Source: a virus. From it: 64,000 nt of DNA. The notes below the pieces were generated by a model. The model saw only the letters and a list, made by a program, of their open reading frames with translations. It was not told where the DNA came from and ran no database searches. Where the stretch lies: the IMG/VR virus record IMGVR_UViG_3300043409_001561; one strand, written 5' to 3'. The position numbers and the translations under genes were made by a program. This document shows positions 60,175-62,101 of the stretch, one piece after another; positions within the stretch are counted from its first letter, which is position 1; every line of letters starts with the position of its first letter.

Positions 60175-60600
60175 ATTTTGGTGTCGGAATGGTGATCCTT
60201 CTTTTATTTTCGGTGGTAGAGTACCCGCCCTAAGTATTTTAATCCGTTCTAGTTCGGAGGTCTTATTATTTAGTTGAGACAAAATCAACTACTATTTTTA
60301 CTTGTAGTAAACAAGAGGTATGTTTTACGACCTAAAGTGTAGGGGTTTCCTACGTTTAAACTCTCCTATGGTCACCACTTTATACTTTTTCGAGTAAAGT
60401 GGTAAAACTCTGATCTATCTGCTTTTTTTTTAGTTTGTGTTTGCAGAAACCATTCGTTTGTCGGACTTAAAGGGAATTCGTATATTCCCAATCCATTACA
60501 CCTAATAACATTGTGGTATCGGAATTGTCTGACACTTTACATAACTCTGAGTGGTCCCCCGCTTTCACGGTTTACACCCTTATGGTTATGTGGGTTATCA
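60175..60600 (+). ncRNA. candidate structured ncRNA with RNase P RNA-like motifs
   Basis: This roughly 420-nt non-coding segment is GC-richer than the flanks. It contains CTCCTATGG (compare the P4-region CUCCAUAGG), CACGGTTTACACCC (compare CACGGUAAACUCCACCC) and GCAGAAACC...GGACTTA (compare ACAGAACCCGGCUUA). Strand and identity are uncertain. Confidence 0.35.
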
Positions 60601-60685
60601 AAGCCCCTCTTCCTTAGCTGAATTGTAGTTTTTTAATTTTGCTGCAATTATTCCTTAGCTACCACAAATATTTTCAAAGAACGTA

Positions 60686-62101
60686 TTATACAGTTATTAC
60701 ACTATATCTTTTATCATTAACAGTATCCATCATTATGGATTCTGGTGTCATATTTTTACCCCCTAATAGTGACTTAAGTATCGATGGACTAAATCCCGAA
60801 ACTAATGCAGTTCCGTTTTTATCAAACTCAACTGGAAAGTTACCACCACTAGAATTTAAATTCCAATATACTACATTAGGCATTTTATATCCTGCCTCTT
60901 TATACATTTCCTCAATCATCGATTGAGCACCCAAACTATCTCTTCTAGTTGCCTGATTGAATTGCATATCAGATAAAATTAATATCTTAGTCGGCATAAA
61001 TTCCTCACTAATATTATTGTTTTTTGCCTGAGTTAGAATTAAGTTAAATACTTTTTCTAAATTAGTACTCATACCCCAATCTGAACTTATTAATTGTGAT
61101 AGTCTTTGCTCTAGACTACCTTTTAAGTACTGTAATTCAGGACTTTCGGAAAATGTTATAAATGCATCTTTGAAGTTACCTTCACTTCTTTCAGAAATAT
61201 ACATACCTAATGATACTGCAATATCCATACAAGTTAGGTTTGGGTTACCTCCCGCTGGACAATCCATAGATCCTGAAACGTCAACAACTGGTAAAATTCT
61301 TTCTCCAGATCCCTCCATCCAATTAGGTAGTGACTCCCATTGTTTACTATTTACTACTTCATCACCACCCATATTCATAGATTTTATGATGTCGTATGGG
61401 TAAACCGCACCTGCATTAACTTTTGCAGTTCCTTCGATTAGAGAATTTTTATACTCCTCATACCTTTCATTATCATTTCTTTTAAATGATTTTTGGTATC
61501 TTGACGATGCCAATGAAGGTATTTTTGAATAGTCGATTGATTCCCAATTTTTTGAACACATCTTAGTTTCTACAACATTAGTTAAATCGACTAACATTTT
61601 TCTATATTGTTTAGGAGTAGTTTTAAATAATCTTCTAAGTTTATTTGCCACTTCACCTTTTCTAGGCATCCATTTTGCACAAAGTCCATCACCGTTAGTT
61701 AATGCGGTTTTGATAATTTCAAACATTTCATCCTCTAATTCGGTACCCATAAGGACTAATATGTCATCCCATCTACCAAACTCTGAAATAAAATTTATAT
61801 TTTTTCTAAGTGTTAAAGGTGAGTTGACAGATAGATACTCAATAACGTCTCTAAATACTTTTCTTTCACCCGCACCACTTCTAATATCTCTAACCCAAAA
61901 AAGTATTTTTGTTGCCACTAAAGGATTTTCTAAAAAGGCTTGATCAAAAATTTTATTAACCAATTCTTTAGATTTTCCTCTCATCGCACCAATAGCGAAA
62001 AATAAATCCACACACTTATTAAGTGTCGTAGGATTGGTAACCATACCATTTGCGGTTAATGTTACATTTTGTTCTTCCGTATTAGTTAACTGAGTGTCCA
62101 T
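60686..62101 (-). CDS. vWA (MIDAS) domain protein with an N-terminal helical domain (Ro60/TROVE-like or DUF2828-like architecture)
   Basis: ILPVVDVSGSMD (DxSxS MIDAS) and ILILSDMQFN within a vWA-length region. The N-terminal roughly 250 aa is helical. Confidence 0.5.
   Translation of the reverse strand: MDTQLTNTEEQNVTLTANGMVTNPTTLNKCVDLFFAIGAMRGKSKELVNKIFDQAFLENPLVATKILFWVRDIRSGAGERKVFRDVIEYLSVNSPLTLRKNINFISEFGRWDDILVLMGTELEDEMFEIIKTALTNGDGLCAKWMPRKGEVANKLRRLFKTTPKQYRKMLVDLTNVVETKMCSKNWESIDYSKIPSLASSRYQKSFKRNDNERYEEYKNSLIEGTAKVNAGAVYPYDIIKSMNMGGDEVVNSKQWESLPNWMEGSGERILPVVDVSGSMDCPAGGNPNLTCMDIAVSLGMYISERSEGNFKDAFITFSESPELQYLKGSLEQRLSQLISSDWGMSTNLEKVFNLILTQAKNNNISEEFMPTKILILSDMQFNQATRRDSLGAQSMIEEMYKEAGYKMPNVVYWNLNSSGGNFPVEFDKNGTALVSGFSPSILKSLLGGKNMTPESIMMDTVNDKRYSVITV

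Follow-up and report, generated by a model that had tools for sequence, protein, structure and literature searches.

A conserved two-module RNA next to a divergent Ro60-like gene in a viral genome: a candidate Y-RNA-like partner

The 64,000-nucleotide (nt) stretch of viral DNA recorded as IMG/VR entry IMGVR_UViG_3300043409_001561, called the window below, carries a conserved structured RNA with its own terminator at positions 60141-60682 of the minus strand. The RNA follows a gene on the same strand (60686-62101), whose product of 471 amino acids (aa) is predicted to have the fold of Ro60. Particles of Ro60 and Y RNA are conserved from bacteria to humans, and constitute a major human autoantigen. 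By analogy with these particles, we favour, with somewhat better than even confidence, an interpretation of the RNA as a giant two-module Y-RNA-like partner of this divergent Ro60 (DUF2828/vWA) protein. The window is phage-like in sequence, with a GC content of 29.7%, 27 transfer RNA (tRNA) genes and a transfer-messenger RNA (tmRNA).

Conservation and architecture of the RNA

The RNA lies in a gap of 619 nt (60067-60685) between two minus-strand genes, 59593-60066 and 60686-62101. The longest open reading frame (ORF) inside the gap is 56 aa, and there is no real ORF. An earlier note on this DNA, made by a model from the letters alone, had proposed a non-coding, GC-rich and hairpin-dense element at 60175-60600. 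Its non-coding character held up, whereas the bounds were too narrow for the conserved unit, 60141-60682. The GC enrichment was found as well (0.363 in the RNA, against 0.297 in the window and about 0.2 in ordinary nearby intergenic spacers), but it is modest, with 86 of 1270 segments of equal size being equally GC-rich. The hairpin richness was borne out on either strand: the minimum free energy of the gap had a z-score of about -4, and none of 100 shuffled sequences was as stable.

Searching the gap against 50,697 phage genomes with blastn returned matches of 25-37 nt only, which is the level of chance. The surrounding 671 nt (60050-60720) were scanned on both strands with Rfam 15, at gathering thresholds and also at E ≤ 10 with permissive filters. 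At E ≤ 10, no match was obtained to RNase P of any class, Y_RNA, YrlA, tRNA, ROOL, GOLLD or riboswitch families, and terminator-like noise was all that the scan of the gap returned. The Infernal check proposed in the earlier note (RNase P, Y_RNA and YrlA models, both strands) was thus negative, and ARAGORN detected no tRNA-like element in the same interval.

Homologues were collected from IMG/VR and JGI metagenome scans, with the protein as the first query and the invariant 20-mer GGTGTAAACCGTGAAAGCGG as the second, and more distant relatives were reached via the protein alignment. Whole-RNA homologues were found in 16 distinct sequences or contigs, 66-99% identical. The RNA was better conserved at the nucleotide level than the adjacent coding gene, both in locus L004 (82.9% vs 80.2%) and in the distant L018, L078 and L087 (71-75% vs 60-61%). 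Insertions and deletions in the homologues were not multiples of three, and no ORF was kept.

RNAalifold runs on whole alignments produced unstable long-range pairings, and were replaced by hand curation of helices and counting of pairs. The final set of 19 helices (105 pairs) was counted on alignment A6 (16 sequences), with the 3' partners slid by 1-3 columns and 500 shuffles serving as controls. Standard pairs accounted for 94.6% of cells, compared with 36-50% in the slid controls. Changes on both sides of a pair were seen for 32 pairs vs 6-12 for slid partners, and the covariation score was 0.198 vs 0.04-0.08; none of the 500 shuffles reached the observed pairing or covariation values. Two candidate helices were excluded from the set: H7 (GUGUC/GAUAC), a rival to H1/H2 that covaries in L018, L027 and L032 and breaks in the L078 clade, and the long-range helix H16 (CCUCUU/AAGAAGG), which is lost in L018. 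Many conserved G.U pairs are present in the fold, which would become A.C on the opposite strand. Because of these pairs and the orientation of the intrinsic terminator, the RNA was assigned to the minus strand, the same as the gene. The region probably encodes a stable, highly structured non-coding RNA. Its features and flanking genes are as follows.

60141-60682, minus: whole conserved structured RNA of 542 nt, from leader motif to terminator T-run (alignments A1, A3 and A6; covariation counts)
60673-60682, minus: invariant leader decamer GTTCTTTGAA, 4 nt past the stop codon and 5 nt before H1
60511-60667, minus: module A, 157 nt, helices H1-H6 (curated helices, covariation counts)
60639-60644, minus: CAGCAA signature of module A, ranked 4th among 128,000 window positions by a position weight matrix (PWM)
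60180-60502, minus: module B, 323 nt (curated helices, covariation counts)
60441-60446, minus: CUGCAA signature of module B, ranked 3rd among the same 128,000 positions
60143-60172, minus: intrinsic terminator with a 13-bp stem and a U-run, the stem (helix 19) maintained in relatives through compensatory changes
60686-62101, minus: gene of the 471-aa Ro60-like protein, with a predicted N-terminal helical TROVE-like domain and a C-terminal vWA domain
59593-60066, minus: flanking gene, 157 aa, without family

The 5' boundary of the RNA (60682) is situated 4 nt past the stop codon of 60686-62101, and the homologue alignments revealed no conserved promoter between the gene stop and the start of the RNA. 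For this reason, transcription together with the upstream gene, up to the RNA's own terminator, is most likely. No change was seen in the leader decamer GTTCTTTGAA among the 10 close relatives with an aligned 5' flank. Exact copies of GTTCTTTGA[AC] occur on the minus strand at 52240-52249, 4 nt ahead of the tmRNA, and at 47185-47194, 20 nt ahead of tRNA-Asn, with another at 45581-45590 and a near-copy at 30585-30594, both also on the minus strand; the same word is found 5' of units in L064, L072, L077 and L093. A role of GTTCTTTGAA as a sigma-70 or MotA-type promoter was considered and rejected, given the misfit spacing to -10-like hexamers and the position 4 nt from the mature 5' end of the tmRNA. 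The decamer may instead be a processing or leader signal.

Some 8 nt separate the two modules that make up the RNA. Each is apparently closed by an unvarying stem/internal-loop/stem, after which comes UUGCAGCAA or UUCUGCAA. In module A, the outer helix H1 (UUGUGGUA/UACCACAA) is separated from the inner helix H2 (GGAAU/AUUCC) by an internal loop with GCUAA on the 5' side and CG/GA on the 3' side. Past H2 comes AAUUGCAGCAAAA (single-stranded: AAUUGCAGCAAAAUU), and then a distal domain (H3-H6) with a GNRA-capped hairpin (GGGUG..CCGU-GAAA-GCGG..CACUC). Helices H4 and H6 covary (A-U/C-G/U.G), and the inner stem of the hairpin is changed from CG to GC in five relatives. An exact 22-mer of this hairpin, AGGGTGTAAACCGTGAAAGCGG, was also encountered in two high-GC metagenome contigs (L024, 1223-1242; L035, 1855-1874), at sites upstream of a luciferase-like oxidoreductase ORF and without an Rfam match. 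These contigs have nothing else in common with the RNA and were rejected as homologues; the shared 22-mer is probably due to chance.

Module B is closed by the outer helix H8 (GGUGU/ACACC), with a variable 5' hairpin, H9, that is missing in L032. Beyond H9, the order is AAACGAAUGG, inner helix H10 (GAAUGGU/ACCAUUC) and UUCUGCAA, and the interior holds at least eight hairpins (H12-H20). Pair changes on both sides were observed in H9, H13, H14, H15, H17, H18, H19 and H20. The signature of module B reads ACAGCAA in L027 and UUCAGCAAC in the minimal forms of L077, L080, L083 and L093.

In each of the 16 sequences the closing helices H1+H2 and H8+H10 are able to form (95-100% paired), but they vary little. 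H8 does not change at all, a single G-C/G.U pair is the only variation in H10, and H1 and H2 are close to invariant. The stem that corresponds to them in the wider family does covary. Near-invariant closing helices together with a covarying periphery are the pattern expected of a protein-contacted surface. The 3' strands of both modules read AUUC-CG. A CGAA word is present in module B as AAACGAAUGG in 14 of the 16 sequences, and the corresponding junction of module A reads AAGGAAU in the window and AACGAAU in L004, L005, L021 and L029. The dominant conserved word in both modules is CAGCAA/CUGCAA, not CGAA.

The Ro60-like protein and the CAGCAA-stem signature

The 471-aa protein retains the residues of a MIDAS (metal ion-dependent adhesion site), D274-x-S276-x-S278, T346 and D378, which are invariant in alignments A4 and A5. 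Its Pfam matches are DUF7788 (vWA-type, 9e-52) and DUF2828 (5e-34), and TROVE (PF05731) is not among them; NCBIfam gave no match for the protein, and PHROG 850 carries the label 'RNA-binding protein'. The best sequence match in the PDB was Ro60 of phage phiLo, confined to the MIDAS strand (E 0.22 with the single sequence, 0.0014 with a profile). An AlphaFold2 model was built from a 38-sequence alignment (pLDDT 79, pTM 0.68) and searched with Foldseek. The only matches at E ≤ 0.001 were five Ro60 structures, including phiLo Ro60 (9kop/9l5y; E 6e-9, TM 0.55, about 500 columns), Deinococcus radiodurans Rsr (2nvo) and human Ro60 (9nen), and Ro60 proteins were the only full-length structural matches. 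In the model, a helical-repeat (HEAT-like) ring domain and a vWA domain follow each other as one full-length fold. The predicted structure is thus Ro60-like, as anticipated in the earlier note from a helical N-domain and a MIDAS vWA domain. By sequence criteria, however, the protein belongs to a family apart from TROVE. Compared with Ro60, Rsr and phiLo Ro60 (TROVE + vWA; PDB 1yvp, 2nvo, 9l5y and 9nen), identity to the window protein is only 10-18%, and TM-scores of 0.34-0.55 suggest that its helical ring is shaped differently.

Homologues of the protein are encoded by 711 sequenced phages, among them FelixO1-like, Listeria P100/A511-like, Campylobacter and Vibrio KVP40-like phages and mycobacteriophages, and are also found among thousands of metagenomic proteins. 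Those of actinobacteriophages are already annotated as 'Ro-like RNA binding protein'.

A shared RNA signature was first suggested by L013 (36% protein identity). Downstream of its gene, 1.1 kb of DNA is non-coding and contains repeated copies of a unit, 5'-stem-(A)ACAGCAAA...stem'-UAGU. Within two of these units there are tRNA-like domains, with a YrlA match of 45.9 bits that covers the tRNA-like part only (model positions 23-89). Enrichment was evaluated on the gene strand of 80 further DUF2828 loci (51-82% protein identity) with flanks of 4 kb on either side. The CAGCAA word occurred at 2.98/kb in the first 250 nt downstream of the genes and at 1.58/kb between 250 and 500 nt, compared with about 0.2/kb elsewhere in the flanks and 0.05-0.26/kb on the opposite strand, corresponding to a 10-25-fold enrichment in the 500 nt downstream. 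It was present within 700 nt downstream in 54 of 76 loci. At the level of sequence, a linkage of the CAGCAA-stem signature to DUF2828 genes was thereby demonstrated across the family.

One stem strand lies 2-5 nt before CAGCAA and its complement tens to hundreds of nt further on. The closing stems vary between loci: GGUUCC/GGAACC, GGCUUC/GAAGCC, GGUUUC/GAAACC, GGAUCG/CGAUCC, GGAUUG/CAAUCC and GGACGC/GCGUCC were all found. A loose test for stem partners, with G.U allowed and a span of 350 nt, discriminated poorly (73/80 sites vs 53/80 with shuffled stems). The units also differ in number and placement. Mycobacterium phage Archie has three directly downstream of the gene, one with T and D arms, and in Citrobacter phage Moogle they are interspersed with tRNAs downstream of the gene. 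Listeria phage LP-125 (L119, JX126918.2) has three CAGCAA hairpin units directly upstream of its DUF2828 gene, an annotated RtcB-like ligase 1.3 kb downstream of the gene and, about 1 kb upstream of it, a ROOL RNA (RF03087, 83 bits, E 3e-15) that is cut by the end of the locus. Minimal forms of module B occur in L077, L080, L083 and L093, e.g. GAAUGAC-UUCAGCAAC...UCAUUC-CG.

The family was defined by an (A)GG-stem, a spacer of 2-5 nt and C(A/U)GCAA on the 5' side, and by the complementary strand followed by YG on the 3' side, all on the strand of the DUF2828 gene. A PWM trained on 72 sites from other phages, with the window-type RNAs excluded, was used to score 128,000 positions of the window. 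The four top-ranking positions, all on the minus strand, were 45454, 46921, 60446 (module B) and 60644 (module A). Both modules also carry the 3' AUUC-CG and agree with the family definition. The RNA of the window appears to belong to a pan-phage RNA family that is absent from Rfam 15.

Some further observations were made at loci of DUF2828 genes. In Cronobacter phage S13 (L001, NC_028773), two over-long 'tRNAs' of 121 and 113 nt lie downstream of the gene (4868-5110); one is annotated tRNA-OTHER, and ARAGORN calls neither. They are followed by an unannotated gap of 670 nt (5111-5780) with CCUACAGCAAUU. A repeated GG(A/T)CGGTCAT word opens intergenic segments around the DUF2828 gene in L008, L010 and L012 (about 2896, 4317 and 4835). 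In LP-125, the features named above were noted at 1-496, 1140-1420 and 4328-4482.

Comparison with Y RNAs and alternative interpretations

Y RNAs act as tether and gate for Rsr and polynucleotide phosphorylase (PNPase). The 5' and 3' ends of Y RNA pair as stem/internal-loop/stem with a short conserved motif (PMC4201824, PMC12135203). In phage phiLo, Ro60 binds two adjacent Y-like RNAs that have a stem-bulge-stem and a CGAA motif, and phiLo Ro60 has been described together with Yrl1/Yrl2 and host PNPase (PMC12135203).

The bacterial and phage Y RNAs (YrlA/YrlB of Salmonella, Yrn1 of Deinococcus, Yrl1/Yrl2 of Thermus phage phiLo; RF02553, RF00019) lie beside and on the same strand as a gene for a Ro60-type vWA ring protein, often with at least two RNAs per locus. 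The RNA of the window has the same location, on the gene strand and 4 nt past the stop. Module B carries a CGAA word (AAACGAAUGG) at a loop/stem junction, at a place equivalent to that of the phiLo motif, and sister units in the window (45343-45464), L013 and Archie enclose YrlA-type tRNA-like domains. There are also differences. In place of GNCGAAN0-1G or GGUCCGA, the RNA of the window has the signature UU(G/C)C(A/U)GCAA; it lacks a tRNA-like domain; its modules of 157 and 323 nt are fused into 542 nt compared with the usual ~70-130 nt; and the partner protein is DUF2828/DUF7788 instead of TROVE. Thus, of the earlier suggestion of Y-RNA-like RNA beside the gene, the position was borne out and a stem/loop/stem closure is likely, whereas the Y_RNA and YrlA models failed and the RNA is 4-5 times larger.

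By analogy with Ro60-Y RNA particles (PMC4201824, PMC12135203), we propose that each module would present a docking element made up of the outer stem, the asymmetric internal loop, the inner GAAU/AUUC stem, the single-stranded UU(G/C)C(A/U)GCAA and the 3' CG, and that one Ro-like ring would dock on each module closure. The large covarying interiors could then serve as effector or scaffold, for example in tethering a host exoribonuclease or gating access of substrates, with a downstream role in quality control of tRNA or other RNA, or in countering host defence that targets RNA. Binding of the signature by the protein, stoichiometry and downstream function are all inferred from this analogy.

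Several points weigh against the RNA being such a partner. Since the helices H1, H2, H8 and H10 show scarcely any variation among the window-type RNAs, they are backed by analogy across families and not by covariation. About 22 of the 76 loci, including KVP40 and L007, have no unit within 700 nt downstream, and the 80 loci are phylogenetically related, so that their counts do not amount to independent observations of enrichment. The commonest form, (U/A)ACAGCAA, is found in neither module: A has GCAGCAA, and B has CUGCAA. Neither the Y_RNA nor the YrlA model matched 60141-60682 at E ≤ 10, and ARAGORN found no tRNA-like domain there. Finally, CAGCAA units are also located among tRNA genes far from the Ro-like gene, both in the window (45454 and 46921) and in Moogle, and the signature could instead direct the processing or the stability of stable RNAs.

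The main rival interpretation follows from this last point. The RNA would be stable and independent of the protein, for instance a decoy, an anti-defence RNA, a ribozyme or a scaffold on which host factors assemble, and both the CAGCAA-stem and the leader GTTCTTTGAA would be generic signals of maturation or stability. The units between tRNA genes 13-15 kb from the gene, those among the Moogle tRNAs, and the presence of GTTCTTTGA[AC] before the tmRNA and tRNA-Asn are all in line with this. The ornate covarying interior likewise recalls large phage RNAs such as ROOL, which adjoins the DUF2828 gene in LP-125. ROOL and GOLLD resemble the RNA in that they are phage-borne, several hundred nt long, rich in covarying hairpins and near tRNA genes; they differ in that neither matches in the window, whose RNA has two stem-closed modules with a signature resembling a protein-docking site. 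Against independence, the signature peaks 10-25-fold right downstream of DUF2828 genes and is at background level elsewhere in the 4-kb flanks, despite the intergenic regions and tRNAs there. In phages of Actinobacteria, Firmicutes and Proteobacteria alike it accompanies the gene, and the partner protein has the predicted fold of a dedicated ncRNA-binding protein. We consider a protein-independent RNA unlikely, at roughly one chance in five.

A cis-acting function is less probable still. The RNA could be a 3' untranslated region of the Ro-like gene, involved in autoregulation or mRNA stabilisation, or a leader or riboswitch for 59593-60066. It does begin 4 nt past the stop codon with no conserved promoter between, and proteins of the Ro type could autoregulate via a mimic of their RNA ligand. 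A length of 542 nt with at least 19 helices, however, far exceeds the needs of an autoregulatory operator, and homologous units elsewhere are positioned upstream of the gene or within clusters of tRNAs. Between the RNA and 59593-60066 there is a strong terminator and, after it, a conserved promoter-like TTTACA-17-TAAAAT, and no riboswitch family was matched.

The earlier note had put forward phage-encoded RNase P RNA (rnpB), serving the large tRNA set, on the grounds of length and of short strings resembling conserved elements. A length of ~400-540 nt suits RNase P RNA, short strings resemble the CR-I words (AAGUCCG, CCAUAGG), and bacterial RNase P RNA would go well with a phage carrying 27 tRNAs and a tmRNA. 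The quoted strings are indeed there, on the plus strand of the gap. However, the bacterial (RNaseP_bact_a/b), archaeal, nuclear and other Rfam models of RNase P all failed to match at the gathering threshold and at E ≤ 10, and the words sit in unrelated positions of the fold (GNRA-capped hairpin, junction, 3' strand of a variable hairpin). The 'P4-like' AAGUCC is the 3' strand of that variable hairpin, which L032 lacks and which differs in sequence in L018 and L078. The architecture is one of two independent stem-closed modules instead of a P1-P4 pseudoknotted core, a topology incompatible with RNase P, and this reading is effectively refuted, with a negligible probability. The idea of a hairpin-rich spacer without function, or of a gene remnant in decay, has only the absence of a database match in its favour; it deserves next to no credence and is refuted by the comparative data: conservation above that of the flanking gene, long invariant blocks, 32 compensated pairs, and indels out of frame with no conserved ORF.

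Other RNAs of the window and significance

Two further units with the signature, both identified in the tRNA cluster, and three genes for RNA-related proteins were recognised in the window.

45343-45464, minus: small partner-type RNA in the tRNA cluster, from a descriptor scan; top PWM match of the window
46879-46931, minus: mini hairpin unit of 53 nt, AGGAAGAU-UUCAGCAAAU...GUCUUCCU-GA, between tRNA-Trp and tRNA-Tyr; second-best PWM match
27530-28267, minus: protein with a PolyA_pol head domain, a nucleotidyltransferase of CCA-adding type, beside the first tRNA cluster
4130-5965, plus: 611-aa protein that has a HAD domain as in 'Swiss Army Knife' RNA-repair proteins
38006-38698, minus: metallophosphoesterase

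The RNA at 45343-45464 has a tRNA-like T arm (GCAGGUUCGAAUCCUGU), an acceptor-like hairpin and a D arm, all held within a closing stem (GGAUUG/CAAUCC) that goes with UUUCAGCAAC. It has a partial match to YrlA (34.5 bits, E 2.5e-5, model positions 24-84) that is below the gathering threshold. The tRNA-like mimics mentioned in the earlier note are thus represented by at least this unit, which has the same closure signature as the 542-nt RNA. Adjacent to it, between the GTTCTTTGAC motif and the YrlA-like unit, a GC-rich hairpin-forming stretch at 45465-45580 (minus; GCGGCGGCCCGC..., GGGGAUCGACACCUC...) had a weak RAGATH-19 match only (E 2.6) and could be another small RNA. A 126-nt Rfam tRNA match at 30934-31059 (minus; 39 bits), which ARAGORN does not call, may be an intron-containing tRNA or a tRNA-like RNA. 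The phage tmRNA (51835-52235, minus) has an unusually long predicted tag, ANAYNTEDMMSIPTSITRSAVVEEIELMELV. Other genes on the minus strand encode a full-length DnaJ homologue (57892-58887), two adjacent DNA methyltransferases of the N6_N4 and D12 class (55405-57224) and a tyrosine integrase/recombinase (40719-41519). The genomic context, with the CCA-type enzyme, the RNA-repair HAD protein, 27 tRNAs and the tmRNA, and with RtcB in LP-125, fits a theme of RNA maintenance.

In the literature that could be searched on DUF2828, Ro-like proteins and phage Y RNAs, which is incomplete, the RNA was not found described. What would be new is a partner RNA of the Y-RNA type with a different signature, without a tRNA-like domain and 4-5 times the usual size; the Ro-likeness of the protein was already contained in annotations. 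In the dimeric phiLo Ro60-Yrl complexes, two rings are reportedly bridged. More tentatively, and with somewhat less than even confidence, we suggest that the DUF2828/vWA proteins may be a separate, phage-dominated branch of the Ro60 superfamily with their own, as yet uncatalogued class of partner RNA, marked by a stem and (U/A)AC(A/U)GCAA, in which the 542-nt RNA could likewise bridge two rings and, through its large covarying domains, recruit or inhibit host enzymes of RNA decay or repair.

How an RNA specialises a Ro60 protein is understood from a handful of examples. The protein family discussed here is annotated only as 'DUF2828' or 'RNA-binding protein', without a known RNA partner, and the signature points to candidate partner RNAs, so that the system can be tested directly in tractable phages. 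The 542-nt RNA also adds a strongly covarying member to the short list of ornate phage RNAs. If the more tentative proposal above is true, it would represent a new type of viral ribonucleoprotein, which would protect the tRNA and tmRNA pool of the phage or counter defence systems that target RNA.

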